Assembly: GCA_964596875.1 (NCBI GenBank)
Contig: CAZQVT010000001.1
Coordinates: 107,255 to 171,254 of the forward strand
Length of the DNA stretch: 64,000 nt
Direction of reading: 5' to 3'
Origin: an uncultured Candidatus Saccharibacteria bacterium
GTDB taxonomy: Bacteria; Patescibacteriota; Minisyncoccia; Phycocordibacterales; DATDWN01
The translations under genes were made by a program, and so were the position numbers. Below, one piece after another: positions 7,502 to 62,370 of the stretch; the first letter of the stretch is position 1, and each line of letters opens with the position of its first letter. Under the pieces are notes generated by a model that had not been told where the DNA came from, did no database searches, and saw only the letters and a list, made by a program, of their open reading frames with translations.

Positions 7502-7560
7502 TAATTTGACAAAATGTAATTTTATGTGCCATAATGTTTGTGGAGAGAAAGGGGCGAGAC

Positions 7561-8160
7561 ATGAACTGGTACCAGTCTGTGAGTGTGGTTCTGGCGCTGG
7601 GACTGTATGTCCCACTTGGTGTACAGATCCTTCAGGGTAAGGTCGTGCAGAACTTGGCGACCTTCATTCTGTGGGGGCTGCTCGATACCATCGCCGGCAC
7701 ATCTCTATACGTTCAGGGTGGCAACTACGGGTTGCCGTTCGCGTACGTTGCGGGGTGCACATTCATCATCGCGTGCATCCTGAAGAAGCGAACCTACAAC
7801 TGGACCAGTTTTGAAACGAAAGTATCGTTTCTGGTCCTCCTGTCCATTGTTGCCTGGATGGTCTCCGGACCCTACATGGCGACAATCTTCTCAACTACCG
7901 GCGTGGTGCTCGCGGGAGTTCCCCAGGTGAAAGATTCCTGGAGAAACCCGAAGCAGTCGCCGATGCTTCTTTACATCGGGTACGCATTCGCAAATCTACT
8001 GTCAACTATCGGCGGCAAGTCGTGGACAGTGGAGGAACGACTGTACTCGTTTGCCTGCTTTCTGCTCGTTCTGGTAGTAGTAGGCGCAACGTCGAGAAAG
8101 TACACTCTGGCATATCGTCGTATGGTGGACGATGCTCGCGAGCTGTGGAGTCTCGACTAA
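7561..8160 (+). CDS. GC-rich polytopic membrane protein, possible PQ-loop/SWEET-like transporter (two repeats, second with VPQVKDSWRNPKQ)
   Basis: About 58% GC against about 35% in flanks. RBS AAAGGGG 6 nt before ATG 7561. Hydrophobic helices throughout. Family assignment is from the motif only. Confidence 0.45.
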   Translation: MNWYQSVSVVLALGLYVPLGVQILQGKVVQNLATFILWGLLDTIAGTSLYVQGGNYGLPFAYVAGCTFIIACILKKRTYNWTSFETKVSFLVLLSIVAWMVSGPYMATIFSTTGVVLAGVPQVKDSWRNPKQSPMLLYIGYAFANLLSTIGGKSWTVEERLYSFACFLLVLVVVGATSRKYTLAYRRMVDDARELWSLD

Positions 8161-8176
8161 CAAACTGCCTGTTCTT

Positions 8177-8217
8177 GGCGGAACCCTTTGGGTTCCGCCA
8201 GAGCACGGCTTTTTTTG
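8177..8217 (+). terminator. intrinsic terminator GGCGGAACCCTTTGGGTTCCGCC..GCACGGCTTTTTTT
   Basis: GC stem-loop plus T-run directly after the 8160 stop. The 3' tail GCACGGCTTTTTTG recurs in the 8971-9010 terminator. Confidence 0.6.
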
Positions 8218-8239
8218 TTATAAAATTTTTTGTGTTAGT

Positions 8240-8500
8240 ATCTGGGGGAAGGGAGGTGGTGTTGGTCAAACGATGCAAGTTTTGTCGGAGTCGCAGGATT
8301 GGCATCCTCGGCAAATACTTTCATTGCCATAGGTGCTTCCGACTTCTACAGCATGTGGACCCTGTAGAGCAGGGAAAGGAGAAGACTGCCGTCGAGGATT
8401 TGATGGCAAGGACCCTGGCGCGTGAAGCCGCAGACCGAATAGTTCACAAGAAGTAACTCTCGTGGTGGGGTCGATATAAGACCCCTGTACGAGTTTTTTG
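8240..8500 (+). ncRNA. candidate small RNA / micro-ORF transcript in GC-rich island (possible 17-aa ORF MARTLAREAADRIVHKK at 8403-8456)
   Basis: Extended -10 like TGtTAGTAT near 8243-8251. Hairpins GAGGATtggcATCCTC, GGCAAatactttcATTGCC and CCCTGtagagCAGGG. Terminator GGGGTCgatataaGACCCC..TTTTTTG at about 8466-8497. Confidence 0.25.
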
Positions 8501-8544
8501 TTTGACAATATTTATTTATATGAGAGATTGAGTCGGGGAGGACT

Positions 8545-8961
8545 ATGCTCGGACTTTACTTGCGTGCGGCGTTTTCTGGCCTGTTCTTTGGGCTGTGGCC
8601 ACTTTTCATGAAGCACAGTGGCATTAAGAGTTCTGCGGTCTCGACGATCTTTCTCGAGGCTGTGGTTCTCGCTGTCGTGCTTCTCTACGGAGGGCGTGAG
8701 TTCTCAACAACCGATCTGTCGGGAACAAAGTGGGTGTACTTGTTCCTGGCTGGTGCGAGTGCGGCGACCGGAGTCCTCGCATTCAACAGTGGACTTGCAG
8801 TTTCAACCGAGTCCACTGTGAGTCTGATTGTTGTGACTGCCATTCTGGTACAGGTGGTGGTGACGGCAGTCTACCAAGGAACTATTGGTGGTGGAATCTC
8901 CGTGACCAAGGCGGTAGGGTTCGCCCTCGCGGGCATTTCAGCCTACATCCTTTCGAGGTAA
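8545..8961 (+). CDS. GC-rich small 4-TM membrane protein, EamA/SMR(ArnE/F)-like
   Basis: 138 aa with four hydrophobic helices. RBS GGGGAGG 3 nt before the ATG. High GC. Confidence 0.4.
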   Translation: MLGLYLRAAFSGLFFGLWPLFMKHSGIKSSAVSTIFLEAVVLAVVLLYGGREFSTTDLSGTKWVYLFLAGASAATGVLAFNSGLAVSTESTVSLIVVTAILVQVVVTAVYQGTIGGGISVTKAVGFALAGISAYILSR

Positions 8962-8970
8962 CGCGTCGTG

Positions 8971-9010
8971 TGTGGCGGGACAAGTGTCCCGCCGGCACGG
9001 CTTTTTTGTT
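8971..9010 (+). terminator. intrinsic terminator GGCGGGACAAGTGTCCCGCC GGCACGGCTTTTTTG
   Basis: Stem-loop plus T-run after the 8961 stop. Paralogous to the 8177 terminator. Confidence 0.65.
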
Positions 9011-9038
9011 ATATAAAATAAAGTGGTATCCTATACCT

Positions 9039-11939
9039 ATGTCAGCGGATATTTTTAAAGAAAAATACAAAGCACTAAATAAGGCACAAAAGGAGGCGGT
9101 AGATGCCATAGAGGAGCCAGTTATGGTCGTGGCAGGTCCTGGAACGGGTAAGACAACTATTTTAACGCTTCATATTGCAAACATACTACTTGAGACACAG
9201 ACAAATCCTGGGGGCATTTTAGCCCTTACTTTTACTGACGCCGGGGTAAAGTCCATGAAAAAGAAATTACGACAGATCATTGGTAGTCGTGCTGATGAGG
9301 TCGCTATACATACTTTTCACTCTTTTGCTGGATCAGTTTTTTCACAGTTTCCAGACCATTTCCCAGAACTTTTTAGAACAAAGCAGATTACAGACATAGA
9401 GGCAGAAAGTATGGTTCGTGAAATACTGCGTTCAGAAAAGTTTGGAAAACTCCGACCTTTCGGAGAACCAGACTACTATGTTGGGAAAATATTAAAAGGT
9501 ATAAGTGATTCCAAAAAAGAAAACCAAACTCCAGAAAGTGTTTCGGACTTTGCAAAACAAGAAATAGAAAGACTAAAAAGTGACCCAGCGTCTATCTCTT
9601 CTCGTGGTCCAACAAAAGGAAAACTAAAAGCAGATGTGAACGGGAAAATAGAAAAATGCGAAAGAACGTTTTTGTTTTCTGAAGTTTTTAGAATTTTTGA
9701 AGAAAAGAAAAAAACTCTAAAACTTTTAGACTACGACGATCTACTTCTGAAACTTTTGGAAGCACTGGATAAAGACACTCAACTTTTGCAGGAACTGCAG
9801 GAAAAGTTTCAGTATGTACACATAGATGAACATCAGGATACCAACGAGTCGCAAAACACTATTGTTATGAAACTGGTGGACTTTTTCGACACCCCAAATA
9901 TTTTTATTGTAGGAGATGAAAAGCAGGCGATATATCGTTTCCAAGGCGCGTCTGTAAAAAACTTTCTGACATTCCAAAACAAATGGAAAAAAATGAAAGT
10001 AGTAAAACTCGAAAGCAACTACCGAAGTCATCAGGCCATACTGGATGCTACTTTTAAAATGATAGAAAACAACTACGAAGAAGGAGAACATAAAGACCTT
10101 CGGGTAAAACTAACAGGAAATGGAAAAGAAAGACCGATAGACCTTGTTACAAGTCCAGATGGTTTTACGCAGGATGAATATATTGTAAAAAGAATAAAAG
10201 AAATACAGAAAGAAGACGGGGATGCGACCGTTGCGGTTATTGTTCGCAAAAACAGAGAAGTCGAACACTTTTTGTCTTTATGTGAAAGAAATGACATAGA
10301 AGCCACAGCAGAAAGAGGTGTAAATATTTTTGAATCACCGGTTGGTACTTTGTATTTTGATATTTTGGAGTACCTAAACGACAGAACAAAAACCGAGGCA
10401 CTGGCGAACACCATCGCACGAGGTTTGTGGGGTATAGATTTTCAAAAGTCAGTTGCACTAATAAACAAAATAAGAAGCACTGATGTAGATATAGAAAATG
10501 AGTTGCCTCAAATAAAAACTATACTAAACGAGATAAATACTGGTGGAGTCATAAACTTTCTCATACTTACGGCAGAACTTTCTGGATATGCTGAAGTCGT
10601 AAAACAAAGTCCAGTTTCGGCGGAAGTGTGGAGGGCGATAGTGGACCTTTCAAAAGACATTGCAGAAGGCGGTTCCATACAAGACCCAAAGATTTTGATA
10701 CAAGAACTTTTGAACTACAGAAAAACTGCAGAGAACAAGTCGATAAAAATCGGTAGTGGAAGTATAAATTCTAAAGTTCAAATAATAACCGCGCACTCTT
10801 CCAAGGGTCTAGAGTATGACTATGTTTTAATGCCAAATGTAACAGAGGAGTCGTGGATGAGTCATAGTTTTGGTAACTCTTTTGTGTTTGCATTTCAAAA
10901 AGAAGAGGGTGATGAGGTAAAGGATTCTCGAAGACTTTTCTATGTGGCGATGACTCGTGCAAAACAGCACGTAGAACTTGTGGTCCCAGAAGAAAACTCT
11001 GGTGGAAGGGAACTTACACCGCTACGCTTTTTGTCAGAACTAGACGCTAAACATATAAAAACAACAAACCTAAAAAGAGTTATGGAAAGACCTTTGGAAC
11101 TTTCTTTGGGATATTTTGACAAAGTGAGAGAAAAAGAAGCTCAAGAGTACACAAAAAGAGTTTTGGTACAAAAGGGACTTTCTGTAACAGCATTGAACCA
11201 TTTTCTAGATTGTCCTAGAGGATTTTTCTACAAGAGTATTCTAAAGATTCCAGAAGCACCTAGTGTTTCGTCCGAAAGGGGTATTGCAATGCACAAAGCA
11301 CTTTCACTAGTTTGGAGAGAGGAAAAAAGAAAGGCTTCGGATATAGAAAGAACTATAGTTTCTGTCACGGACGAGTATTTCAAAAAGTCTTTGTTGCCAA
11401 AGTTTGAAAAAGAAATAGTAATGGAGGAAATAAAGTCGTATGCAAAAGTCGTTGCAGTTGAACTGGAAAGTTATTTTGCTTTTGCAGGACAAACCTTTTT
11501 GGAAAAATGGGAAGAAAAAGAACACACTGTAAGGTTTGAAAATGAAGAAGTTACTTTTAACCTGCATGGTCAGCTGGATGCGATACTTGTAGATGACGAC
11601 TACGCTAGGATTTATGACTACAAAACCACCGAGGTAAAAAGCATAGCAAGCATAAAAGGGGAGACAAAAAGTTCGGATGGAAACTATTTTAGACAACTAG
11701 TTTTCTACAAGTTCCTATTACAAGGAAACGCAAACTACAAAGGCAAGGTGATAGAACCAGCACTGATTTTCGTAAAACCAAACGCGGGCGGTAAGTGTCC
11801 AACCGTTGTAATCCCTATAGAAGAAAACGATATAGAAAATATAAAAAATGAAATACAGAGTTTGGTGGAGTCGGTTTGGTCCGGAGAGTTTCTGAAAACT
11901 AGGTGCGACGACAAAAATTGTAAGTATTGCAAGATATAA
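9039..11939 (+). CDS. UvrD/PcrA-family SF1 helicase fused to a C-terminal Cas4/AddB-type PD-(D/E)XK nuclease with Fe-S cysteines
   Basis: Walker A VVAGPGTGKTT and motif II HIDEHQDTN. C-terminal nuclease LDAILVDDDYARIYDYKTTE, with Cys in FLDCPRGFF plus RCDDKNCKYC, a 1+3 Cys pattern like AddB/Cas4. The ORF track start 8730 is rejected because it overlaps the upstream gene and terminator. Confidence 0.8.
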   Translation: MSADIFKEKYKALNKAQKEAVDAIEEPVMVVAGPGTGKTTILTLHIANILLETQTNPGGILALTFTDAGVKSMKKKLRQIIGSRADEVAIHTFHSFAGSVFSQFPDHFPELFRTKQITDIEAESMVREILRSEKFGKLRPFGEPDYYVGKILKGISDSKKENQTPESVSDFAKQEIERLKSDPASISSRGPTKGKLKADVNGKIEKCERTFLFSEVFRIFEEKKKTLKLLDYDDLLLKLLEALDKDTQLLQELQEKFQYVHIDEHQDTNESQNTIVMKLVDFFDTPNIFIVGDEKQAIYRFQGASVKNFLTFQNKWKKMKVVKLESNYRSHQAILDATFKMIENNYEEGEHKDLRVKLTGNGKERPIDLVTSPDGFTQDEYIVKRIKEIQKEDGDATVAVIVRKNREVEHFLSLCERNDIEATAERGVNIFESPVGTLYFDILEYLNDRTKTEALANTIARGLWGIDFQKSVALINKIRSTDVDIENELPQIKTILNEINTGGVINFLILTAELSGYAEVVKQSPVSAEVWRAIVDLSKDIAEGGSIQDPKILIQELLNYRKTAENKSIKIGSGSINSKVQIITAHSSKGLEYDYVLMPNVTEESWMSHSFGNSFVFAFQKEEGDEVKDSRRLFYVAMTRAKQHVELVVPEENSGGRELTPLRFLSELDAKHIKTTNLKRVMERPLELSLGYFDKVREKEAQEYTKRVLVQKGLSVTALNHFLDCPRGFFYKSILKIPEAPSVSSERGIAMHKALSLVWREEKRKASDIERTIVSVTDEYFKKSLLPKFEKEIVMEEIKSYAKVVAVELESYFAFAGQTFLEKWEEKEHTVRFENEEVTFNLHGQLDAILVDDDYARIYDYKTTEVKSIASIKGETKSSDGNYFRQLVFYKFLLQGNANYKGKVIEPALIFVKPNAGGKCPTVVIPIEENDIENIKNEIQSLVESVWSGEFLKTRCDDKNCKYCKI

Positions 11940-12678: not shown

Positions 12679-12882
12679 CCCGTTTGAAATAGGAGATCGT
12701 TATGTATTTGCGACTCCTAATGTTGTAGTTAAACTTAACTGAAAATTTATAAATATTGATCTCCGTATATTTCTTACGGGATTCATATGAAGACATTCTA
12801 CTATGTAAGTCCGTGGTGTGCAATTTATAAAAATGGTGCTAAGATTAAATGGGCAGTTCGTTTGCCTCTCCGAGGAGGGTGC

Positions 12883-12975
12883 GTGGACGACGACACGATG
12901 CATCCCGAGCTGTGGGACCCAGTCTTCCGCACCGAGCGGGGGATCATGGACCCCAAGGCTGTGGAGATGACGTAG
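12883..12975 (+). CDS. GC-rich micro-ORF (30 aa, VDDDTMHPELWDPVFRTERGIMDPKAVEMT)
   Basis: GGAGGG RBS 3 nt upstream of GTG 12883. High-GC island. The 38-aa ORF at 13453 also begins M-x-DDD. Confidence 0.25.
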   Translation: MDDDTMHPELWDPVFRTERGIMDPKAVEMT

Positions 12976-13131
12976 GACCCTCTGGCGGGTCTAGTCTCTC
13001 CCTAACACAGAGAGGAGGGTAGACTATCGGAATGAGTCTCTGAGGGGGCAACCAGTACGTGTGTCGGCCAAAACACCTGGGAAGGGGGAGGACAGCAACT
13101 CTCCCGACCTGGGTTAACAAAGGATTCTCAT

Positions 13132-13194
13132 ATGCCTGGCAGTAAAGGAAGAGCGGTCGACATGGCCGCCAAGAAGACCGCCAAGAAGCGGTAG
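13132..13194 (+). CDS. GC-rich micro-ORF (20 aa, MPGSKGRAVDMAAKKTAKKR), Lys-rich
   Basis: AGGA RBS 7 nt upstream. Followed by hairpin GTCGCGttcGTCGCGAC and terminator GGGGGCACTGTGTGCCCCCTTTTTTT (13212-13250). Confidence 0.3.
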   Translation: MPGSKGRAVDMAAKKTAKKR

Positions 13195-13211
13195 TCGCGT
13201 TCGTCGCGACT

Positions 13212-13250
13212 GGAATATCCAGGGGGCACTGTGTGCCCCCTTTTTTTAAT
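13212..13250 (+). terminator. strong intrinsic terminator GGGGGCACTGTGTGCCCCC TTTTTTT
   Basis: 9-bp GC stem plus T7. Confidence 0.7.
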
Positions 13251-13351
13251 AAAATTTTCTATGCATTTTTCATACAGTTTCAAAAAAGCATTATTTTAAG
13301 CCATATTTTTAGTACACAAAAATGAAAATGGATTTTGCCATAAAAAGTACT

Positions 13352-13380
13352 TGACGTAAATAGTATAGTGTGCTAAGATA
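13352..13380 (+). promoter_or_regulatory. sigma70-like promoter TTGACG-17-TAAGAT
   Basis: TTGACGtaaatagtatagtgtgcTAAGAT, 70 nt upstream of the GC-rich ORF 13453. Confidence 0.5.
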
Positions 13381-13452
13381 TTTGGGAAGCCGTAAGCGTT
13401 GCAATTTAGCGCCCAAGGTTTGCACACCACAACTTCATCGAGAGGACACACC

Positions 13453-13569
13453 ATGATCGACGACGACAAGAGTCCGCCGGCCGCCGCCAACCTGATGGGG
13501 CCCTGCCGCCCCGGATATCTCGGCCTCAGCCACCAGATGCGCAACCACGCCGGCCACGTCGCCGCCTGA
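13453..13569 (+). CDS. GC-rich small ORF (38 aa, MIDDDKSPPAAANLMGPCRPGYLGLSHQMRNHAGHVAA)
   Basis: RBS GAGAGGA about 6 nt upstream and the promoter at 13352. Followed by a structured GC-rich tail and terminator-like GAGGGGGCC..GGCCGCCCTCTTTTCTTTT at about 13765-13800. Confidence 0.35.
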   Translation: MIDDDKSPPAAANLMGPCRPGYLGLSHQMRNHAGHVAA

Positions 13570-13825
13570 CACCGGCCGTCGGCGCCCGCGCTAGCGACTA
13601 GGTTCACGCTGTCGTGACCTAGATGTCGCCCAGCCAAGCGCGTCGCCTGCCCGTGTCGTTTCGCCCGCATCCCGCGGGCAACAGGAGTTCGCCGATGAAC
13701 CGTTCACCGCCCTGAAGTTTCGCCCAGCTAGTCTGGGCACCGTGGATACACAAGAGGGGGCCAGCGTCAGATACGCCGGCCGCCCTCTTTTCTTTTATAC
13801 AAAATTTTTTATTACCACGAATTAA

Positions 13826-13945
13826 GAACTGATAAATTTGAGTTCAGTTCTAGGCGGACGAGAAAAATGCGAGAAGCCTTACTAATAGTAAGGTGACGAG
13901 AATTTTTTGAAGTCCAACAACGAAATGAGCCAAATTTATAAGTTC
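13826..13945 (-). repeat. MITE/REP-like element family 1, copy R3 (inverted orientation), TIRs GAACTGATAAATTT / AAATTTATAAGTTC
   Basis: Reverse complement carries TTCAAAAAATTCTCGTCACCTTACTATTAGTAAGGCTTCTCGCATTT, matching the R1/R2 core. 13 of 14 bp in the TIR pair. Confidence 0.6.
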
Positions 13946-13947
13946 AA

Positions 13948-14529
13948 TTAGAACAGCGACTGAGTTTTGATCTCTTGAATGGGCTCCCAGTGTTTCGTAT
14001 CCAGTTTTATTTCTTTCGTAAACGGACCTTCTTTGAACATTAGTTTTTTATTTTTCATCGCAAACTCGTAAACATCTTTAGTGATTTTCACATCGTCAGT
14101 ACAGTATTTTCGTATTTTATCTATCTCACCACTTCGCCACCAAGCAACTGCTTCCAAACCATTGCCACTTTTTTGTGTGCCAAATGTACCTTGGGCTATC
14201 TGGTCTAGTTTCATTCTTCTACCATAGGCTTGTCGTATCTCTTTTAGCAAGTCCAATGAGTTTATTTGCAAAAGGTCACCTAAACCTGCTTTTTTGTAGT
14301 ACTTGTTTAGTAGGGGGATGTCAAAATGGTCACCATTGAAAGTGATAAGCTGTTCAGCCTTTTTAAATATAGGCCACATCCTTTCAAACTCTTCTTCGAT
14401 AAAAGTCTCGTATTTTTGTGTTTCGTAGTCAAAAACTCCAACAAGTGATATGTCCAGGTCTGCAGGGTCATTACTACCTACATCAGTAAAAATATTTTTA
14501 GTTTCTATATCGAAAACAACTTTTTTCAT
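13948..14529 (-). CDS. DEDD-type 3'-5' exonuclease (DnaQ/RNase H-like fold)
   Basis: Exo I FDIET, Exo II FNGDHFDIP and Exo III YCTDDV motifs. Confidence 0.65.
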   Translation of the reverse strand: MKKVVFDIETKNIFTDVGSNDPADLDISLVGVFDYETQKYETFIEEEFERMWPIFKKAEQLITFNGDHFDIPLLNKYYKKAGLGDLLQINSLDLLKEIRQAYGRRMKLDQIAQGTFGTQKSGNGLEAVAWWRSGEIDKIRKYCTDDVKITKDVYEFAMKNKKLMFKEGPFTKEIKLDTKHWEPIQEIKTQSLF

Positions 14530-16616: not shown

Positions 16617-16733
16617 ATGAAATAAATACACAGTTTTGTTTGTAATAACTATTTACACTATGAATCTCTTGTGATTAGATAATAAGTGGGGTGGTTTTCG
16701 TCGTGAAGGCCACAAAGCGCCAGTGGGGTGAGG

Positions 16734-17066: not shown

Positions 17067-17087
17067 CAAGGGCCACAAGCACACAAG

Positions 17088-17125
17088 GGGCGGGTCGCGT
17101 TCGCGCGACCACGCTCTTTTTCTTG
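17088..17125 (+). terminator. intrinsic terminator GGGTCGCGTTCGCGCGACC..CTCTTTTTCTT
   Basis: Its hairpin resembles GTCGCGTTCGTCGCGAC at 13196-13212. Confidence 0.6.
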
Positions 17126-52757: not shown

Positions 52758-55493
52758 ATGGAAAATCCTACTAACCAGCGCTTTGCTACACCAGAAGCTG
52801 AAATTGCTTACTTGCGAGAGCAGATTTCTAACAAAGAAAAAATTCTTCGCGAAACAAACCCAAACTTAAACAGTGAAGAAGTTGTAAAAGAAGAAATAGA
52901 AAAATACAAAAATGCTTTGTCGCACGAAGTTTTGGACGAAACCTTGCAACTTTCAAAAGTAGACATGGAGTCTATTGTTTTAAACCTAGAACCAGAGACT
53001 CATGATAACAAAATAGAGGAACTTTTAAGTATTTTAAATACAAAAGGCATCAAAAACGCGATGTCTGTTTTGGCAGAAATGAAAGACCCGCACTTAGAAG
53101 ACGATTTTCATAGGTTTTTAGTGCAATATATAAAACATGGCTATGAGGCAAAAGGTGTAAGTATTTCTGTAGATGAGTTTCGTGGACTAGATATGACTTT
53201 GTTTGAGGTTGTTTTGCCAGAAGAAGCAGGGGAACATAATAAAAAGCCACTAAAGGAACTTGTTTCTAGTATGGAACAGTTTTTGGCCGGAATGCTGTCA
53301 GTTGTAAATGAAAACGGCACAAGAGACTACTCTAAAAACTATATTGTACTTGAAATAGCAAACCCAAACGGTAGTGACCAGTTTGTTTTCTATGTTGCAG
53401 TGCCAAACTCGTATAGACAACTTTTTGAAAAACAGATCATTTCTGTATTTCACAATGCAGTTCTAAACGAGGCAGTGTGTGACTACAATATTTTCAATAC
53501 TGACGGTGTTTCTGTCGGTTCTGTTCTAGAGGCAACCGTAAATCCCATCTACCAGTTTAAAACCTACGAGAGTTTTGACCACGACCCAATGAACGTTATC
53601 TTAAACTCTTTTTCTAAAATCCAAAAAGAAGGTGAGGGCGCGGGTATCCAAATAGTTTTTGCTCCAAAAGACGACTATTTCCTGAAAAATTATAAATACG
53701 CTATAGAACAAATAGAAAATGGTGAAAAAGTAAAAGACGCTATATATCTTCCAGAAACAATTGCCGGAAGTTTTGGTAAAGGTCTAAAGTCTTTGTTCAA
53801 AGCGTCTCCAAAAGAAGAAGAAAAAAAACCAGTAGATACAGAAGCGATAGATAAGATTAAAAAGAAAATGAGTAGTGTGATAGTGGCTACAAACATTCGT
53901 CTTATCGCTTCTGCAAAAACCAGACTAGAAGCTGAAAAGATTTTGCAAACACTAGAGTCTAGTTTCAACCAGTTTTCTGACCCTAGTGCAAACGGCTTGA
54001 AAGCAAAAAGACTAGACAAAGCAAGTTTGGAAAAAATGTTTAGAAACTATTCTTTTCGAAGTTATAACCACAACGAACTTTTACCTCTAAACCTTCATGA
54101 GGTTACTTCGCTGTACCACTTCCAAAACAATGGACTTTCACCTACGCCACAACTAAAACAAACACAGGCTGTTTCTGCTCCTGCTCCTGCAGAAATGACT
54201 GCAGGCGGAACACTTTTGGGAACGAACACATATAGAAACACTGACACCGCAATATATATAAAAGACAACGACCGTTTGAGACATACATATACTATTGGTC
54301 AGACAGGTACAGGTAAAACAACCTTGCTTGTAAATATGATCATGCAGGACATAAACCAGGGAAATGGTTGCTGTTTTATCGACCCACACGGAAGTGATGT
54401 ACAAAATATTCTTTCAAATATTCCAAAAGATAGAATAAAAGACGTGATTTATTTTGATCCAAGTTATACAGAAAGACCGATGGCACTAAACATGCTGGAG
54501 TATGATAGAAGTCATCCTGAACAAAAAACTTTTGTGGTAAACGAGTTGTTTAGTATCTTCCAAAAACTATATGGAGGCGTGCCAGAGTCTTTGGGGCCAA
54601 TGTTCGAGCAATACTTTAGAAACGCAACAATGCTTGTGATAGAAGACCCAGACACAGGATGCACTTTGCTTGATGTTTCCAGAGTTATGACAAACAAAGC
54701 CTTTCGAGATATGAAAGTAGCCAACTGTAAAAACCCAGTAGTTGTTCAGTTCTGGAAAGAAATAGCTGAAAAAGCAGGCGGTGAAGCAAGTTTGGCAAAC
54801 ATTGTTCCATATATTACTTCAAAGTTTGATGTATTTTTGGCAAACGATATTATGCGACCTATAGTAGCGCAAGAAAAATCTTCTTTTGATTTCCGAAAGA
54901 TAATGGATGAAAAGAAAATACTTCTTGTAAACCTTTCAAAGGGAAGATTGGGGGACATAAACGCCAACCTTATCGGTCTTATACTTGTAGGTAAAATACT
55001 TATGGCTGCACTTTCTCGTGTGGACAAACTTGGCACAGAAGACTTGCCTCCTTTCTATCTATATATAGACGAGTTTCAAAATATTACGACAAACTCTATT
55101 TCAACTATTCTTTCTGAGGCAAGAAAATATAAACTTTCTTTAAATATTGCGCACCAGTTTATCGCCCAACTTCAACAGGAAATAAAAGATGCTGTGTTTG
55201 GAAATGTTGGTTCAATGTTTGTGTATCGTGTGGGTGCAGAAGATGCGGAGTTTCTAGAAAAACAGTTCTCGCCTGTGTTTACTGCAAAAGATATTATGAA
55301 TATCGACAACTATAATTTTTATACAAAAATGTTGGTAGATGGAAAAACAGTAAAAGCGTTCAATGTAAAAGCAAACCCAGCACCAAAAGGAAACCCTGGT
55401 GTAGTAGAAAACTTAAAACAACTTTCATATCTTACATACGGAGGGGATAGAGCAAAAATAGAAGAAGAGATACTGGCGAAATATAAAAAATAA
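52758..55493 (+). CDS. large P-loop ATPase, TraG/TraD/VirD4-like type IV secretion coupling-protein family (DUF87-like), orphan
   Basis: Walker A IGQTGTGKTT, DPHGS, Walker B LYIDEFQN. 911 aa with a long N-terminal soluble domain. No other T4SS genes in the window. Confidence 0.55.
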   Translation: MENPTNQRFATPEAEIAYLREQISNKEKILRETNPNLNSEEVVKEEIEKYKNALSHEVLDETLQLSKVDMESIVLNLEPETHDNKIEELLSILNTKGIKNAMSVLAEMKDPHLEDDFHRFLVQYIKHGYEAKGVSISVDEFRGLDMTLFEVVLPEEAGEHNKKPLKELVSSMEQFLAGMLSVVNENGTRDYSKNYIVLEIANPNGSDQFVFYVAVPNSYRQLFEKQIISVFHNAVLNEAVCDYNIFNTDGVSVGSVLEATVNPIYQFKTYESFDHDPMNVILNSFSKIQKEGEGAGIQIVFAPKDDYFLKNYKYAIEQIENGEKVKDAIYLPETIAGSFGKGLKSLFKASPKEEEKKPVDTEAIDKIKKKMSSVIVATNIRLIASAKTRLEAEKILQTLESSFNQFSDPSANGLKAKRLDKASLEKMFRNYSFRSYNHNELLPLNLHEVTSLYHFQNNGLSPTPQLKQTQAVSAPAPAEMTAGGTLLGTNTYRNTDTAIYIKDNDRLRHTYTIGQTGTGKTTLLVNMIMQDINQGNGCCFIDPHGSDVQNILSNIPKDRIKDVIYFDPSYTERPMALNMLEYDRSHPEQKTFVVNELFSIFQKLYGGVPESLGPMFEQYFRNATMLVIEDPDTGCTLLDVSRVMTNKAFRDMKVANCKNPVVVQFWKEIAEKAGGEASLANIVPYITSKFDVFLANDIMRPIVAQEKSSFDFRKIMDEKKILLVNLSKGRLGDINANLIGLILVGKILMAALSRVDKLGTEDLPPFYLYIDEFQNITTNSISTILSEARKYKLSLNIAHQFIAQLQQEIKDAVFGNVGSMFVYRVGAEDAEFLEKQFSPVFTAKDIMNIDNYNFYTKMLVDGKTVKAFNVKANPAPKGNPGVVENLKQLSYLTYGGDRAKIEEEILAKYKK

Positions 55494-55543
55494 ATTATGG
55501 GCCGATCGTGGCGTTCGACCAGCCCATAAACCGCAGGTTTGCA

Positions 55544-55750
55544 TTAGGCACCTCGAGCTTTCTTCAGAAGTTCGAGTCGGAGTCCTCTCGCGATTTCTCT
55601 CACATCCATCCTGATCCTTTCGTTCTCCTCGGTGTCGAGGGAGTTTCTGCGGAACGCTTCCTCGAAGATTTCACCGAGCAGGTTTGGGTTCGCTCCGCGT
55701 CTTATGAACTCTCTGTTCACTTCGCGAGCGATTTTTTCGGCGAGACTCAT
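55544..55750 (-). CDS. GC-rich small helical protein (68 aa)
   Basis: RBS AAGGAGG 5 nt before ATG 55750. About 60% GC. Second gene of a two-gene minus-strand cassette. Confidence 0.4.
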   Translation of the reverse strand: MSLAEKIAREVNREFIRRGANPNLLGEIFEEAFRRNSLDTEENERIRMDVREIARGLRLELLKKARGA

Positions 55751-55842
55751 AGGCACCTCCTTTCCGACATTATTATCGCACAATTTTTTGCATTGAAATA
55801 GGGGCGCGCCTTTCGACGTGCCCCCAGTTCGGCGAGGAGGAA

Positions 55843-55959
55843 CTAGTCCTTGTCGCCGTTCGGTAGCCCCCGGTAGTCGAGTCGGGGATCGGTCTTGCGA
55901 CCTTTCCACTTCACTGCAAACGAGGACTTCTTCACCTTACCTTCATTTTTCTTGGCCAT
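55843..55959 (-). CDS. GC-rich Lys-rich micro-protein (38 aa, MAKKNEGKVKKSSFAVKWKGRKTDPRLDYRGLPNGDKD)
   Basis: RBS AAAGGAGG 8 nt upstream. The segment ...KGRKTDPRLDYRGL has faint bL33-like character. Confidence 0.35.
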   Translation of the reverse strand: MAKKNEGKVKKSSFAVKWKGRKTDPRLDYRGLPNGDKD

Positions 55960-55983
55960 GATGTTGGCCTCCTTTCATTTATT

Positions 55984-56013
55984 ATTATACTACAATAACA
56001 CCTGAAGTGTCAA
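55984..56013 (-). promoter_or_regulatory. consensus sigma70 promoter TTGACA-18-TATAAT on the minus strand
   Basis: Minus strand reads TTGACActtcaggtgttattgtagTATAAT, driving the 38-aa and 68-aa ORFs. Confidence 0.55.
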
Positions 56014-57936: not shown

Positions 57937-57965
57937 AATGACCTCCGAAAGGAGGTTGTTTTTGT
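57937..57965. terminator. bidirectional terminator AAAATGACCTCCGAAAGGAGGTTGTTTTTG
   Basis: Perfect hairpin with A-run 5' and T-run 3'. Confidence 0.75.
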
Positions 57966-58540
57966 ATAAGGAAAAGGGCTAGGATCGAATGGTCACGTGG
58001 GGTGTGCGTAGAGACCAAGGATACCTAGCCCTTCTGCCGACTTGGGTCGGCTTCAGTTGAAACAGTATAAAGAGCGAGACCGGTAAGACCGATCTGGAGG
58101 GAAAACACGTTCCTCCACGTTGATGCGTGTATTTCACGCACCCCCGAAATCGAGCCTCCACATACTGGCCGCCAACCTATCGCCCTCACTAGGGTCGGGT
58201 TGGACATCATCCAGTCTCGCGTATTAACCAACATTTGTAATGCAGGCAAATACTCGAGACCGGCTTCTGTATGGAACTATAGCACAAATAAAAAATATTT
58301 CAACCATTAGAAAACGGTCGCCAGGCGACCGTCGTAGGTGGTTCCGTAGGAGTGTCGCAGTGTACAAACCGAAAGACAGTTCGGTTTGAATCCTTTTCTG
58401 TGCCACCAGAATGGTATATATCCTCGACGCAACATTCAAACCGTTACAGACTGGGTCGGGAGTCCCCAAGTGTGGAATCGGTGAAGGGCATCTAGAGAAT
58501 CTACACACGGCAGACCTAACTGAACCATTTCACATACTAT
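57966..58540. ncRNA. GC-rich structured region without credible ORF, candidate ncRNA(s); class and strand unresolved
   Basis: About 57% GC between rplU and recR. Stems GGGCTAGG..CCTAGCCC, GGAGGgaaaacacgttCCTCC, TGCGTGtatttcaCGCA, GTCGCCagGCGAC and AAACCGAAagacagTTCGGTTT. Internal minus-strand promoter-like TTGAAA-16-TATAGT (about 58270-58305). Confidence 0.35.
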
Positions 58541-58544
58541 ATTA

Positions 58545-59156
58545 TTAGTTTCTGTTTTTCAAGGCGTTTTTTATAGTGTCGCTGTCAGAGTATTCCAGTT
58601 CGGTTCCGGTAGAAAGTCCTCTGCCAAGAGTTGAGATTTTAATATTATTTTTAGTTGTAACATCTTTTAGAAATTCAGTTAGGTAGTTTACAGTGTTTTC
58701 TCCTTCAGGGTTGTAGTTTAATGCTAAAATAATTTCATTTAGTCCTGTTGAGACTTTTGTTTGTATGGTTTGAAGTAAATCTTTTTGTCTTATTCTATTT
58801 TCAGGATTTTTTTCAAGTATTGGGACAGTGCCACCTAGTATAAAATAATAGCCGTTATAAAACTTTGTTTTTTCTATATTTTCATAATCCACATCATGGG
58901 AAACTATCATAAGTTGTTTTGGGTCCCGGTTAGTGTCTCTACAAACTGGACAAAGAGTATTTGTGCTGTTTGGAAAAAACCTAAAACAACTTGTGCACGA
59001 ATGTACTGTGGATCGAACCTCTTTTATTAACCCAGCAAGGTCGGTTGCATACCCCGGGTTTTTGTTCAGTAAAAAGTACACAAAACGTTTTGCTTGTCGT
59101 GGTCCGATTCCAGGAAACTCCTTAAAGAGTTCTATGAGTCGTTCAGTGTTGTTCAT
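58545..59156 (-). CDS. recR: recombination protein RecR
   Basis: Zn finger CTSCFRF..CPVCRD and Toprim domain. 203 aa. Confidence 0.9.
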   Translation of the reverse strand: MNNTERLIELFKEFPGIGPRQAKRFVYFLLNKNPGYATDLAGLIKEVRSTVHSCTSCFRFFPNSTNTLCPVCRDTNRDPKQLMIVSHDVDYENIEKTKFYNGYYFILGGTVPILEKNPENRIRQKDLLQTIQTKVSTGLNEIILALNYNPEGENTVNYLTEFLKDVTTKNNIKISTLGRGLSTGTELEYSDSDTIKNALKNRN

Positions 59157-59206: not shown

Positions 59207-59319
59207 TCAAACTTTCAGATTTGTGATAAGGTCGCGTATAAAATTTCGAAATACGAGAAGCCTTACAAGTAGTAAGGCGACGAGAATTTTGAAATTTTAG
59301 ACGATGAGATTAGCCAAAT
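59207..59319 (-). repeat. MITE/REP-like element family 1, copy R4 (inverted orientation)
   Basis: TACGAGAAGCCTTACAAGTAGTAAGGCGACGAGAATTTTGAAA is the reverse complement of the R2 core. Ends AAACTTTCAGATTTG / CCAAATGTGGAAGTTTT. Confidence 0.6.
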
Positions 59320-59328
59320 GTGGAAGTT

Positions 59329-60702
59329 TTAGAATTCTGAGAATTCTTTGTCAGCACCCCCGTACTGACTCTTATCCAAACTCTGGAAAGTAGCTTTCTT
59401 TTCGTTAAAGAATAGATCAACTTTTCCAACCTCACCGTTTCTGTGTTTTTCGATAAGTATTTCTGCGATGTTGGTTTTTTCCGACTCGTCTTTGTATTTG
59501 TCTTCACGGTGAATAAACATAACCACGTCCGCATCCTGTTCAATAGATCCAGAGTCACGAAGGTCAGAAAGTCTTGGTCTTCCACCTCTTTTTTCAACTT
59601 CACGAGAAAGCTGTGAAAGCGCTATGACGGGCACATCCATTTCACGAGCAAGATTTTTTAGCCCTCGAGATATTTCTGTTATTTGTTGCACCACGTTGTC
59701 TGACTTTGTGTTTGTTGGAGCAATAAGTTGCAGGTAGTCCACCACGATAAGTCCTAAGTTGTGCTCGTTTTTTAGTCTGCGAGCCATACTTCGCATTTTC
59801 AGTAGATTGTTCCCTGGTTGGTCGTCTATGTGTATTGGTGCTTTGTTTAGTTTATCTAGGGACTCTCGTATCGCTTCAAAGTCATTTTGTCTTGAAAGTT
59901 TGCCAGTACGAAGTTTCCATGCATCCACATTTGCTTGTGCTGCTAGCATTCTATCTACTAGTTGTTGTGAACTCATTTCAAGAGAAAATATTCCCACAGT
60001 AATGTTGTGGTTTACAGCGGCTTGTCTAGCGATATCTAAGGCCAGGGAAGTCTTACCCATTGAAGGCCGTGCAGCAAGGATAATGAGGTCTGACTTTTGG
60101 AAACCAGCAAGCTTGTGGTCAATGTCAGCAAAACCACTTGGGATTCCTCGCATTTCATTTTCTCCTGAGTGAAGTTTGTCGAGTCTTTCCCAGGCCTCTT
60201 CAAGTTCATCTTTGATGTGTACAAACTTGTGAGCAGTGTTAAAGTTTGTAACTTCAAAAAGTTTTTTCTCGGCGTTGTCTAGCATTTCTTCTAGCTCTTT
60301 GTTTTCATCGTATCCGATTTGTGAGATATGGTCAGATGCTTCTATAAGTCTTCGCATCATGTATTTTTTCTGAACAATCTCCGCGTAGTATGTTGCATTG
60401 GCAGAAGAGGGGACTATATTCACTATTTCGGTAAGGTATGTGTTTCCACCAACTTGGTCGAGCCAACCTTTTTCTTTTAGTTTGCTTGAAACAGAAAGTA
60501 GATCGATAGGAGATTTCTTTTGGAAAAGTTCCATCATTGTTTCAAAAATAACTCGGTGCTTTTCAGAGTAAAAACATTCTGACTTTATAGTGTCCATAAT
60601 ATCAAACAGAACTTCTGGTCGAAGTAGTATGGAACCGAGGAGTGCCATTTCTGACTCTAGGTTCTGTGGGGGAATTCTCATGCCTTTAGCGTTTGTTGCC
60701 AT
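59329..60702 (-). CDS. dnaB: replicative DNA helicase DnaB
   Basis: Walker A ARPSMGKTS. RecA-like C-terminal domain. N-terminal DnaB domain. Confidence 0.9.
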   Translation of the reverse strand: MATNAKGMRIPPQNLESEMALLGSILLRPEVLFDIMDTIKSECFYSEKHRVIFETMMELFQKKSPIDLLSVSSKLKEKGWLDQVGGNTYLTEIVNIVPSSANATYYAEIVQKKYMMRRLIEASDHISQIGYDENKELEEMLDNAEKKLFEVTNFNTAHKFVHIKDELEEAWERLDKLHSGENEMRGIPSGFADIDHKLAGFQKSDLIILAARPSMGKTSLALDIARQAAVNHNITVGIFSLEMSSQQLVDRMLAAQANVDAWKLRTGKLSRQNDFEAIRESLDKLNKAPIHIDDQPGNNLLKMRSMARRLKNEHNLGLIVVDYLQLIAPTNTKSDNVVQQITEISRGLKNLAREMDVPVIALSQLSREVEKRGGRPRLSDLRDSGSIEQDADVVMFIHREDKYKDESEKTNIAEILIEKHRNGEVGKVDLFFNEKKATFQSLDKSQYGGADKEFSEF

Positions 60703-60825
60703 GGGTACATTCTAGCATGTTGTTACCACGCTAAGTCCACACAAAAGTCTCATAACTATGTGTAGAATTTGTGGATATCAAAAAACCTCCACTTGGGAGG
60801 TTTTCTGCTTTAGTGTTTTAAAATA

Positions 60826-61968
60826 TTATGGAGTTGTTGTAAATGATTGAACAGTGCCAAATGCTGTACCAGCAGCGTTACTTGCTAAGGCACAGTAGTA
60901 ATAAGTTGTAGATGAGCTTAGTGAAGTTACAAAGTTTGAGTAGGCAACAGAAGTAGAACCATTTCCCAATGAAACTCCGCCTACAAGTGGGGCTCTAGTT
61001 CCAAAAGTATCGTCACAAACTACTGGATCAGTTGTGCTGTATCTGAACCAACCAGTAGATGTAGATTTGTTTGGGTTGGCGTTACCTTTCAGAAGTGCTG
61101 TTGAAGAGGTAGACGCTATTGCAGTGTCAGTGCTTACTGTTGGTGCAGCTAGAGATGTTGTTGATGATGCAATGTTAGAGTAAGAAGATTGACCACCAAA
61201 ATTATACGCTCGTATTCTGTACCAGTATTTTGTATTTGGACTTAGTCCTGTATCGTTATACGCAATTGAATTTGTAGATGTTGTCGCTATTTGTGAAAAT
61301 GGTCCAGACACAGATGTTCCTCTTTCAACAAAATATCCATCTTCAATAGTATTTACATCACTCCATGCAAGGTTAATTTGCGATGAGGAAACTGTAGAGG
61401 CAGTTAGGTATGTTGATGAAGTTGAAATTGTAAGTGATGTGTAGGTTATTACAGTTCCAATTCTACTCAGTCTTGCACCTCTTGTTCCCGCAGAATACAC
61501 TGCGCCGGACTCTAGTGTAGATGTAGAAGTTTTAAGAATATTCAAACTTGAAAAAGTAGATGCAGAAAGTCCGGCTGGTGTTGTGCCTGTTAGAGCATAT
61601 CCTCCAGCGTCACTACTATTTGTTCCATTCATTCTATAAAATACATTCATTGTTGAACTTCCACCACCTGCAGAATTTCTAGATGCGCATGGAGTTATAG
61701 CGATGTCTGTAATTACGGAACCGTTTGGCACTGTGGCCAAACTTATTCCATATGAGTCTCGGTTTCCAACAGTATTTGTAGAGTTATAATCCGTAGTTCC
61801 GTTACAAGTCGCCTCGTCTACAAGAGCAAAATGTGACGCGCCACTGTTTGGTGTCCATGATGTGTAGTTTCCATCAGAAACTGGCACAAGTGATGATGTT
61901 GTTAGCGCACTAGCTACACCCGCTATTGCAAGTAGAGAAAGTATTCCAAAATAATATTTTCTATTCAT
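60826..61968 (-). CDS. secreted Ser/Thr-rich surface protein with fibronectin type III domain
   Basis: Signal peptide. S/T-rich low-complexity regions. FN3-like QINLAWSDV..YWYRIRAYN. Confidence 0.55.
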   Translation of the reverse strand: MNRKYYFGILSLLAIAGVASALTTSSLVPVSDGNYTSWTPNSGASHFALVDEATCNGTTDYNSTNTVGNRDSYGISLATVPNGSVITDIAITPCASRNSAGGGSSTMNVFYRMNGTNSSDAGGYALTGTTPAGLSASTFSSLNILKTSTSTLESGAVYSAGTRGARLSRIGTVITYTSLTISTSSTYLTASTVSSSQINLAWSDVNTIEDGYFVERGTSVSGPFSQIATTSTNSIAYNDTGLSPNTKYWYRIRAYNFGGQSSYSNIASSTTSLAAPTVSTDTAIASTSSTALLKGNANPNKSTSTGWFRYSTTDPVVCDDTFGTRAPLVGGVSLGNGSTSVAYSNFVTSLSSSTTYYYCALASNAAGTAFGTVQSFTTTP

Positions 61969-62104
61969 TGATTAAAATTTAATTATAATTTGTTAACTGT
62001 ATAATTATAACAAAATAAATTTGATTGTTTGTGAAGTTGGGGATACGAACAAGGCCACACATGCGTGTGGCCTGTACTACGTTTCGCCCACGTAGTTGGG
62101 GTTG

Positions 62105-62293
62105 TTACTCGGCCCTGTTTCTGGCCTCGATGAGCGCGCGTCCTCTTTCAGCCCGCGCCTTGTGGCTGGGGTCTGATCTGTTGCACTCGCACACTCCGTC
62201 GGCGCAGTCCATGTCGTGGGCTGCTTCCATGTCTCCAGCGAGTTTACGGACGAGGGTCTTGTCGGTCGACAGTGGTCGCAGCTGCGGGTCCAT
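62105..62293 (-). CDS. GC-rich small protein (62 aa) with DCADGVCEC Cys motif
   Basis: Minus-strand consensus promoter TTGACT-17-TACAAT (62314-62342). RBS GGAGGC 6 nt before the ATG. Downstream hairpin GGCCACACgcatGTGTGGCC. Confidence 0.45.
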   Translation of the reverse strand: MDPQLRPLSTDKTLVRKLAGDMEAAHDMDCADGVCECNRSDPSHKARAERGRALIEARNRAE

Positions 62294-62370
62294 AGCAAAG
62301 CCTCCAATAGAGAATTGTATCAAGCAACAGTTATTTAGTCAAGTCAAGTATAAATAATATTGTGGAAACA

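Follow-up and report, generated by a model that had tools for sequence, protein, structure and literature searches.

GC-rich, Shine-Dalgarno-led predicted transcription units with strongly folding RNA as a candidate second gene class in an AT-rich Paceibacteria genome

A 64,000-nucleotide (nt) stretch of contig CAZQVT010000001.1 (assembly GCA_964596875.1, positions 107,255 to 171,254), deposited under the name of an uncultured Candidatus Saccharibacteria bacterium and here called the window, carries short GC-rich islands between AT-rich housekeeping genes. Here, we examined the composition, predicted transcripts, RNA folding, translation signals and inheritance of these islands and compared them with other genomes and loci, which are denoted by L-numbers (L002, L007, L105, and so on). 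The reading that we favor, with a probability of roughly 0.55, is that the islands form a second, lineage-wide class of resident genes, kept GC-rich by selection for stable RNA folding. We infer selection for folded transcripts as the cause because the GC-richness follows the gene, is bounded by the transcript, and is accompanied by synonymous sites tuned for folding.

RESULTS

Twelve GC-rich islands in an AT-rich backbone

Islands were defined as segments of 150 nt or more whose 100-nt windows reach 50% GC. Twelve such segments of 275 to 1,696 nt and 49 to 61% GC were found, adding up to 10.3 kb, or 16% of the window (Table 1). Recomputed GC content was 39.6% for the whole window, 37.1% outside the islands, and 52.6% inside. 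GC content at third codon positions (GC3) is bimodal, with 0.22 to 0.38 in the open reading frames (ORFs) of the AT-rich remainder (the backbone) and 0.54 to 0.81 in island ORFs, with no overlap and nothing between. An initial annotation, made from the letters and ORFs of the window, had described GC-rich micro-islands scattered through an AT-rich genome; composition is indeed not uniform, and the 13 segments listed there are the same 12 islands, one of which (25044-26639) had been cut in two. When each is read on its proper strand, the islands can be divided into about 20 transcription units. The architecture proposed in the annotation was confirmed, in that the islands are predicted self-contained expression units of atypical composition between AT-rich housekeeping genes, and close relatives variously have, lack or replace some of them.

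By homology to annotated relatives, the backbone is made up of housekeeping genes, namely those for RpoC, DnaG, RpoD, a UvrD/PD-(D/E)XK helicase, DsbA, HisRS, TruB, Fmt, Def, PriA, MreB/C, PBP2, GreA, AspRS, and MraZ-RsmH-FtsI. The nearest genomes are metagenome-assembled genomes (MAGs) of Paceibacteria that are labelled Zambryskibacteria, Parcubacteria or, loosely, "Saccharibacteria". The lineage is probably a Zambryskibacteria-like member of the Paceibacteria in the candidate phyla radiation (CPR), with an AT-rich, tiny genome and relatives from groundwater.

Apart from the compositional contrast itself, nothing speaks for a chimeric assembly or contamination with a higher-GC organism, a concern that the initial annotation had raised. 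Two Logan contigs, assembled independently from run SRR12712864, match the window at 100% identity across backbone-island junctions; one spans rpoD into island a and the other the glyoxalase gene into e3. Furthermore, the same arrangement recurs in MAGs and contigs from other, unrelated studies and sites, and the island borders coincide exactly with promoters and terminators. No misassembly or contamination is indicated, and we give this explanation next to no weight.

The GC-rich zone coincides with the predicted transcript

Between positions 7001 and 64000, the total number of matches to sigma70-type promoters equals the chance expectation, and weight is therefore given to the top matches alone. 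Of the six best (11 to 12 of 12 positions), five are located directly upstream of island units, at 7506, 43625, 51068, 51360, and 56013. Terminator-like hairpins with at least six G-C pairs and a T-tract lie nearly all at island 3' ends. Mean GC is 26% over the 40 nt that end with the -10 box, climbs to 52 to 59% in the transcript, and drops from 65% to 24% across the terminator stem. The GC boundary tracks the predicted transcript to within ~10 nt; since GC steps at both the predicted start and the terminator, the GC-rich zone would be the transcript itself.

The initial annotation had called these signals host-type. This holds for the promoters, which resemble those of the host, but not for the ribosome-binding sites, as the backbone genes have no Shine-Dalgarno (SD) sequence. 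Of two terminator sequences said to recur, the tail GCACGGCTTTTTT is found twice (0.12 expected), both times in island a, and the second recurrence is only a shared 10-mer.

The annotation had also suggested an unrecognized class of insertion cassette. A dedicated system of this kind, integron-like or MITE-like (miniature inverted-repeat transposable element) and with its own recombination sites, would account for compact units and precise insertion (two convergent stop codons border island j exactly) and for the related terminator tails within island a. A search of the island borders revealed no direct or inverted repeats that the islands share at their flanks, no shared border motif or recombination site was found, and the islands show no similarity to each other; on these grounds there is no apparent sign of dedicated insertion machinery. 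Nor was an integrase or transposase found among the window ORFs examined by family scans. In contrast to integron gene cassettes, which are promoterless ORFs with a shared attC site, the units carry their own promoters and have no sequence or structure motif in common. We consider a dedicated cassette system highly improbable.

Island transcripts are predicted to fold far more strongly than backbone genes

Folding was expressed as the z-score of the minimum free energy (MFE) against dinucleotide-preserving shuffles, with 31 segments of backbone coding sequences (CDS) as the control. The 20 island units gave a mean z of about -4.6, reaching down to about -10 (lowest for g0, the g1 mRNA, i2, a1, k2, and a3; Table 1), compared with -0.61 (standard deviation, 1.17; n = 31) for backbone CDS. 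MFE per nucleotide was -0.36 to -0.45 kcal/mol in islands versus -0.21 to -0.26 kcal/mol in the backbone. For the CDS of the amidase encoded by g1, taken alone, z was -13 in the window and -7.0 to -3.7 in five other genomes; it was -1.3 in the one genome where the amidase is not GC-enriched. Unit a1 gave -3.6 to -6.9 in four genomes.

Eight units were tested on both strands, and in four of these the sense and antisense z-scores were -11.6/-5.7, -6.9/-3.7, -5.4/-2.1, and -9.5/-4.9. In these four, which are the most strongly folded of the eight, the sense strand also has two to four times as many G-U pairs. Purine loading, a feature of backbone mRNAs, is absent from island sense strands. The sense-strand excess of folding points to RNA and not to DNA palindromes. 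When synonymous codons were shuffled so that both the protein and the codon usage were kept, z remained at -9.1 and -6.7 for two amidases, -5.4 for a3, and -3.6 for both a1 and e3, with -1.3 and 0.0 for two backbone genes.

The codon shift of the islands is uniform over all G/C-ending codons and extends to amino acid usage, with Arg favored over Lys. Translational selection on particular codons was ruled out as the source of the GC-richness, since all G/C-ending codons rise together. Thermophily was set aside, as the relatives come from groundwater and the tRNAs, judged from their sequences, are of ordinary GC content. A shift that is uniform over codon families and alters amino acid usage, in islands that coincide with variable loci, would also be expected from GC-biased gene conversion, with the islands as hot spots of recombination where heteroduplex repair raises GC at all codon positions. 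However, such a process explains neither a GC boundary that follows the transcript to within ~10 nt, nor a GC-richness that travels with the gene (as for the amidase) and not with the locus, nor a folding excess specific to the sense strand. The effects of GC-biased gene conversion known from bacteria are also far smaller than a GC3 shift from 0.30 to 0.6 to 0.8. We therefore regard it as quite unlikely.

Island genes are SD-led, while the backbone is probably leaderless

Initiation signals were counted with curated start codons for 17 island ORFs and 49 backbone genes of the window. An SD match of at least 5 nt precedes 10 of the 17 island ORFs and none of the 49 backbone genes; at least 4 nt are matched in 15 of the 17. 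Conversely, a -10-like hexamer ending 4 to 10 nt before the ATG (peak, 6 to 9 nt) was found for 25/49 backbone genes versus 0/15 island genes. This backbone -10 box is often extended (TGnTAnnnT), as in front of the genes at 29200-31101, 33124-33795, 33826-34377, 48219-48719, and 59329-60702. Because they have no SD and a -10 box only a few nucleotides before the ATG, the backbone genes are probably mostly leaderless.

The same division is seen beyond the window. Homologues of the amidase, a1, LMWPc, and TonB_C genes in other genomes all have an SD, whereas their neighbors do not. In 41 other AT-rich loci, an SD precedes 46% of the GC-rich ORFs versus 5% of 738 backbone ORFs (odds ratio, 16.7; P = 2e-12).

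Leaderless genes occur in bacteria (PMC3160421), and Bacteroidetes lack SD sequences yet keep the anti-SD (PMC6847099). The window resembles such genomes of mixed initiation in that most genes have no SD and a minority keep it, and it resembles genomes with leaderless genes in the -10 box a few nucleotides before the ATG. It differs in that the two modes are split by base composition, RNA folding, and transcription-unit structure.

Two GC-rich genes are old residents

Unit a1 lies directly after rpoD and before the UvrD-like helicase gene in the window, L105, L107, and L108. Its pairwise identities are 0.77, 0.66, 0.59, and 0.63, against 0.64, 0.54, and 0.60 for the helicase in the same genome pairs, and its GC3 is 0.55 to 0.74 in all four genomes versus 0.24 to 0.41 in its neighbors. 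Since the position is kept, the divergence parallels that of the helicase and the gene is GC-rich in all four genomes, a1 was inherited vertically and not recently inserted.

Between the window and L002, the amidase differs at 36% of synonymous third positions, and its syntenic neighbors (MraZ, RsmH, a 104-amino-acid [aa] ORF, and FtsI) differ at 23 to 40%. The GC3 of the amidase is 0.57 in the window and 0.53 in L002, beside ~0.30 in the neighbors. No two of seven genomes have the amidase in the same context, and in six of them its GC content exceeds that of the genome. It is an old resident and not a recent insertion. As GC-richness was kept despite the vertical divergence of a1 and the amidase, a gene-intrinsic force probably keeps both GC-rich over divergences that saturate synonymous sites.

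This bears on the high-GC donor, possibly actinobacterial, that the initial annotation had offered as an explanation. Repeated recent uptake of small genes from donors outside the phylum, such as actinobacterial hosts, with a composition not yet ameliorated, would account for a composition and codon usage like those of a 55 to 60% GC genome, for an SD-led design that is usual in most bacteria but not in this backbone, and for the absence of some islands from close relatives. The homologues found point elsewhere. The amidase has ~45 close relatives of the same length, followed by a sharp drop to LysM-amidases of other bacteria; the few relatives with a source name are labelled Nomurabacteria, Paceibacterota, Jorgensenbacteria, or just "bacterium". 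For a1, 30 relatives were found, the named ones being hypothetical proteins of Zambryskibacteria and Parcubacteria. Where homologues of either protein are named, the names are those of Patescibacteria alone. A word-indexed search of 5.8 billion proteins returned only e3 itself for e3, and a full HMMER pass over 1.84 billion representatives gave 18 remote relatives (28 to 35% identity); scans of viral contigs with the amidase and a1 revealed no relatives. Furthermore, GC3 is bimodal without the intermediates expected from amelioration, and the sense-strand folding excess would stay unexplained. For a1 and the amidase, vertical yet still GC-rich, the donor account is largely refuted, and overall we judge it very unlikely. 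In contrast to a genomic island from a high-GC donor, the islands have their named closest homologues (amidase, a1) outside any donor lineage, no flanking repeats, and no integrase among the ORFs scanned; unlike genomic islands integrated at tRNA genes, only islands e and i have tRNA genes within or next to them.

Other islands turn over at fixed intergenic sites

The backbones of L007, L008, and L009 align to the window at 70 to 83% nucleotide identity, while the GC-rich content at the island positions differs or has diverged strongly. Between rpoD and the helicase gene, the window has a1, the Zn-ribbon gene, and the EamA-like gene; L007 has an EamA-like and a Zn-ribbon gene; L009 has an EamA-like gene, a Zn-ribbon gene, an AT-rich gene for a phosphoenolpyruvate (PEP)-utilizing enzyme, and a GC-rich low-molecular-weight (LMW) phosphatase gene; and L008 has an unrelated GC-rich 226-aa ORF. 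The large PEP-utilizing enzyme gene (PPDK_N/PEP-utilizers) lies among GC-rich cassettes at this site in both L009 (7311-9344) and L105 (4055-7513) and is followed by a GC-rich LMW phosphotyrosine phosphatase gene on the opposite strand. The variable site therefore also takes genes of the backbone type.

Comparison with sister genomes, which the initial annotation had proposed for the presence or absence of islands, gave a mixed picture. L023 has nothing at the sites of islands j and k, the j site of L021 is occupied by a diverged j2-like pair, and g0 is missing from L002, which has a GC-rich TonB_C gene in its place; a1, on the other hand, is kept in four genomes. Homologues of a2 (57% identical, in L009) and a3 (42% identical, in L007 and L009) occupy the same locus, the d1/d2 junction is 95% identical in L007, and the 30-aa b1 peptide is conserved between the window and L007. 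The promoter and body of island c have homologues in L007 and L009, with the promoter well conserved. GC-rich genes make up at least 20% of ORFs in the immediate clade of the window, and ~55 other Paceibacteria loci have 0 to 1 each. Clustering of the GC-rich ORFs from other loci gave no single family.

Presence, absence, or replacement at fixed sites would be expected if a flexible gene pool restricted to Patescibacteria, fed by natural transformation or by unsampled GC-richer plasmids or phages, re-supplied the islands as chromosomal morons. Homologous recombination in the conserved flanks would then keep reintroducing or replacing them, so that no amelioration takes place. The context of the amidase differs in each family, possible donors exist among GC-rich Paceibacteria (L087, L090, and L099, with 55 to 59% GC), and horizontal gene transfer (HGT) in Patescibacteria is mostly within the phylum (PMC12455944). 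However, the divergence of a1 parallels that of the adjacent helicase in every pairwise comparison, the amidase and its neighbors have equal synonymous divergence between the window and L002, no viral matches and no mobility genes or repeats flanking the islands were found, and the synonymous-site tuning for folding is left unexplained. As a general account of the islands we find this pool unlikely; like GC-biased gene conversion, it is more plausible for the variable units.

Cargo of the islands

The units are listed in Table 1. The product of g1 matches Pfam PF01520 (Amidase_3; E = 7.4e-17, 62.4 bits, cut-off 27), so that the amidase named in the initial annotation stands. The other labels given there fared less well. 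The EamA match of a3 is weak and below the Pfam cut-off, and e1, called YdjM-like, matched no Pfam family at E values up to 0.01. The lipoprotein label of e3 has a readable lipobox behind it and nothing else. For the PQ-loop label, a1 has no Pfam sequence match, but its AlphaFold 2 model (predicted local distance difference test score, 90) has a KDEL-receptor/cystinosin-like fold (TM-scores, 0.56 to 0.62; E ~0.01 to 0.1); going by the predicted fold, a1 may have a PQ-loop/KDEL-receptor-like 7-transmembrane (7-TM) structure. The a2 product matches zf-RRPl_C4 at E = 4e-4, below the cut-off. Beyond Amidase_3 and the two weak matches, no Pfam or PADLOC family was found for the island ORFs. By these predictions, a3 would be an EamA-like half-transporter, e1 a 165-aa membrane protein, and e3 a putative lipoprotein.

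Predicted micro-proteins of 6 to 68 aa are encoded by b1, b2, c1, c2, i2, j1, j2, and l, and at least four of f, g0, i1, k1, and k2 are RNAs without a convincing ORF (i1 is ambiguous). The g0 RNA has three long predicted hairpins. In Rfam searches of the whole window (gathering and E-value thresholds), only two tRNAs reached threshold, and sensitive scans of islands b, c, and g0 gave chance-level matches only. These tRNAs, Glu-CUC and Asn-GUU, are the only tRNA genes of the window and are found within islands i and e or at their edges. GAG, the codon read by tRNA-Glu(CUC), makes up 0.48 of Glu codons in island genes versus 0.28 in backbone genes.

The micro-ORFs b1 and c1 of adjacent islands have the same acidic start, V/M-DDDT in b1 (MIDDDT in L007) and MIDDDK in c1. 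Island c has, at 13671-13715, a conserved GC hairpin (GCCCGC-ATCCC-GCGGGC) and after it an SD and a proline-rich mini-ORF, likewise in L007 and L009. The mini-ORF reads MNRSPP in the window and MMRARPPP... in L007; it has the look of a stalling leader peptide, yet no gene follows downstream.

Table 1. Positions of the islands, their predicted transcription units, and the tRNA genes of the window (z, folding z-score of the unit or transcript; empty cells, no value given)
Feature	Position	Strand	Promoter, SD, and terminator	Product or content	z
Island 1	7353-9048
a1	7506-8215	+	Promoter TTGACA-18-CATAAT, 7506-7535; terminator ending in GCACGGCTTTTTT at 8203-8215	CDS 7561-8160, 199-aa 7-TM protein	-6.9
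a2	8225-8500	+	Own terminator	CDS 8256-8456, 66-aa Zn-ribbon (CxxC...CxxC)	
a3	8500-9007	+	Promoter TTGACA, ~8502; SD GGAGG; terminator 8984-9007	CDS 8545-8961, 138-aa EamA-like membrane protein	-6.1
Island 2	12807-13266
b	12822-13248	+	Terminator 13221-13248	30-aa ORF 12883-12975 (VDDDTMHPELWDPV...GIMDPKAVEMT); structured spacer; 20-aa ORF 13132-13194	-3.8
Island 3	13368-13822
c	13351-13800	+	Promoter TTGACG-17-TAAGAT, 13351-13379; terminator	38-aa ORF 13453-13569; mini-ORF 13695-13715 after conserved hairpin and SD	
Island 4	16656-17634
d1	16654-17125	+	Promoter; terminator 17093-17110	112-aa ORF 16728-17066, no Pfam match	-3.1
d2	17117-17630	+	Terminator ~17585-17630	116-aa ORF 17206-17556	
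Island 5	25044-26639
e2-e1	25060-25860	-	Terminator after e1	Two-gene operon, no Pfam match	-3.5
e2	25618-25824	-	SD GGAGG	68-aa ORF	
e1	25115-25612	-		165-aa membrane ORF	
tRNA-Asn (GUU)	25899-25973	-		Between e2-e1 and e3	
e3	26031-26657	-	Promoter TTGACA-17-TACTAT, 26657-26629; SD AGGAGG; terminator 26053-26031	CDS 26090-26596, 168-aa putative lipoprotein, lipobox VSGC; GC3 0.81 (highest)	
Island 6	35482-35756
f	35506-35722	+	Terminator 35690-35712	~215-nt RNA, no convincing ORF, no Rfam family	-4.0
Island 7	43277-44545
g0	43283-43602	+	Promoter 43283-43311; terminator 43577-43595	~290-nt RNA, no Rfam family	-10.1
g1	43625-44500	+	Promoter TTGACA-17-TATTAT, 43625-43653; SD AAGGAGG; terminator 44472-44492	CDS 43695-44453, 252-aa secreted N-acetylmuramoyl-L-alanine amidase	-10.4 (mRNA)
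Island 8	49528-50092
h	49488-50045	+	Promoter TTGACT-17-TATACT; SD AAGGAGG; terminator	~100-nt 5' untranslated region (UTR); CDS 49620-49991, 123 aa	-4.2
Island 9	50733-51634
tRNA-Glu (CUC)	50798-50870	-		Just upstream of i1	
i1	51068-51355	+	Promoter TTGACA-18-TATAGT; 18-bp terminator 51309-51349	~250-nt transcript	-5.1
i2	51360-51620	+	Perfect promoter TTGACA-18-TATAAT; terminator 51580-51611	Structured 5' UTR; CDS 51452-51559, 35-aa hydrophobic peptide MFTPFELTLTLTIFVGLGVVQALARRDLVLSIRKR	-9.6
Island 10	55486-55977
j1 and j2	55495-56013	-	Perfect promoter TTGACA-18-TATAAT, 56013-55984; strong SD for both; terminator 55529-55495		
j1	55843-55959	-		38-aa basic ORF	
j2	55544-55750	-		68-aa ORF	
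Island 11	57938-58540
k (span)	57938-58562	-
k1	58300-58532	-	Own promoter and terminator	RNA, no convincing ORF	-2.0
k2	57938-58270	-	Own promoter and terminator	RNA, no convincing ORF	-6.8
Island 12	62016-62346
l	62040-62342	-	Promoter TTGACT-17-TACAAT; SD GGAGG; terminator	CDS 62105-62293, 62 aa	

Repeated elements and an unusual backbone ORF

A conserved 3' element of ~110 nt is present at 7375-7485, 37040-37140, and 43150-43253, where it follows rpoD, the gene at 35757-37000, and the gene at 41646-43109, respectively. It consists of a terminator-like hairpin and then GTCCTC..GTCGTCAAG..CTTGACGACACCATGCT..CTGCGGAGGC, has no Rfam match, and in two of its three copies sits just upstream of an island promoter. 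The copy after rpoD is bracketed by 27-nt inverted repeats (7346-7372 and 7479-7505; 93% complementary), in a MITE-resembling arrangement.

A second, dispersed AT-rich element of ~100 nt was found in the window at 4177-4277 (+), 48066-48188 (+), 13836-13951 (-), and 59244-59329 (-) and in relatives (L007, 5884-5999; L008, 8908-9030; L009, 2464-2571 and 5673-5797). Each copy lies directly 3' of a backbone gene in the same orientation, and the conserved core CTCGTCACCTTACTACTTGTAAGGCTTCTCG forms a hairpin; the element may be a 3' UTR, a terminator, or a repetitive extragenic palindromic (REP)-like repeat of the clade. Furthermore, the near-perfect palindrome ATGTCAAAGAGTCTCTTTGACAT occurs twice, at 16447-16475 and 33537-33565, inside or at the end of backbone ORFs, and may be a protein-binding site. 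The 380-aa backbone ORF at 60826-61968 (-) has odd GC contents of 0.39/0.60/0.22 at its three codon positions, which suggests a low-complexity Ser/Thr/Ala/Pro/Gly-rich protein, perhaps a surface protein.

DISCUSSION

In the mechanism that we propose, each unit would be an autonomous transcription unit with a near-consensus -35/-10 promoter, an SD-led 5' UTR, a small ORF or a noncoding RNA (ncRNA), and a GC-stem terminator, and its GC-richness would be maintained gene by gene via selection for stably folded RNA. The strong SD would be a necessary companion, as a start codon buried in folded mRNA needs anchoring of the 30S subunit. Part of the class would be old and vertical (a1, amidase), while another part (j, k, g0, e3) would turn over at fixed intergenic sites in a moron-like manner, drawn from a Patescibacteria-restricted pool. 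The benefit might be that the mRNAs live long, that they resist RNases or Rho, or that their translation is controlled separately.

Several points weigh against selection for folding. In i2, k2, and e3, the sense strand has no excess of G-U pairs, or the excess is reversed. A comparison of seven amidase genes gave neither a conserved consensus structure nor covariation, so that any selection would act on foldedness in general, an unusual target. The genes for LMWPc, TonB_C, the 220-aa ORF of L107, and the EamA homologue of L009 have z-scores near -1; for these genes of the clade, only the absolute stability given by GC fits the folding idea. The amidase substitutions between the window and L002 cannot separate maintained GC from slow decay, as power is low and the outgroups are saturated. 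Finally, the 16S 3' end, which would carry the anti-SD, was not present among the loci of relatives compared.

Among published concepts, the phage moron comes closest; it is a transcription unit that stands on its own, brings its own promoter and terminator, and deviates in GC content (Hendrix and colleagues; reviewed in PMC3594210). The islands are like morons in having their own promoter and terminator around one or a few genes, in a GC content that differs from that of neighboring genes, in their location between genes that are adjacent in relatives (the j and k sites are empty in L023, and the content of the rpoD-helicase site varies), and in the many small proteins of no assigned function. 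They differ in that they lie in a cellular chromosome and not a prophage, flanked by rpoC, dnaG, rpoD, tRNA synthetase genes, mraZ-rsmH-ftsI, and mreBC; in an initiation mode unlike that of the backbone, together with exceptionally strong predicted folding; and in that a1 and the amidase, long vertical yet GC-rich, are not of recent horizontal origin.

Horizontally acquired islands have also been described in Patescibacteria (PMC12455944), and the variable units of the window fit that account. The islands described here differ in being micro-islands of 0.2 to 1.7 kb with a uniform expression grammar and in part not of recent horizontal origin.

In AT-rich hyperthermophiles, GC-rich islands mark structured RNA genes and have been used to find ncRNAs. 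The window is similar in that its GC-rich segments are significantly folding predicted transcripts, of which f, g0, k1, k2, and i1 look noncoding; it differs in that most units encode conserved proteins, the relatives come from groundwater, and no Rfam family was matched. The mRNAs of type I toxins (hok-like) are stable and highly folded as well. Unit i2 resembles them in its perfect promoter, very structured transcript of ~230 nt, and 35-aa hydrophobic peptide but differs in that no antisense RNA partner was identified and no family was matched; the likeness is confined to at most one or two units. The literature searched, the coverage of which was incomplete, contained no description of a GC-rich, SD-led, hyper-folded class of genes in a leaderless genome that is AT-rich.

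A further reading, which we put forward only tentatively, is that CPR bacteria of this clade have two expression programs encoded in base composition. One set may be an AT-rich, leaderless, weakly folded housekeeping transcriptome, and the other may comprise GC-rich, SD-dependent, hyper-folded small envelope proteins, micro-proteins, and RNAs. If this is true, mRNAs of the second set would be unusually long-lived or translated only in a particular ribosomal or physiological state, e.g., host attachment or dormancy, and GC-richness would be a selected regulatory property of RNA and not a trace of foreign origin.

Atypical composition is a standard signal for calling horizontal transfer. Since it here marks vertically inherited genes, HGT estimates for Patescibacteria based on GC or k-mers would be inflated. 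Likewise, gene callers trained on SD sequences would misplace the starts of backbone genes. The islands offer a testable case in which selection on mRNA folding appears to have shaped synonymous sites and even the use of amino acids, and they suggest that two initiation modes, as predicted from sequence, can be partitioned within one tiny genome. This bears on gene calling in CPR bacteria (starts and small ORFs), on the finding of small proteins and RNAs, and on how envelope genes may be controlled in organisms with very few regulators.

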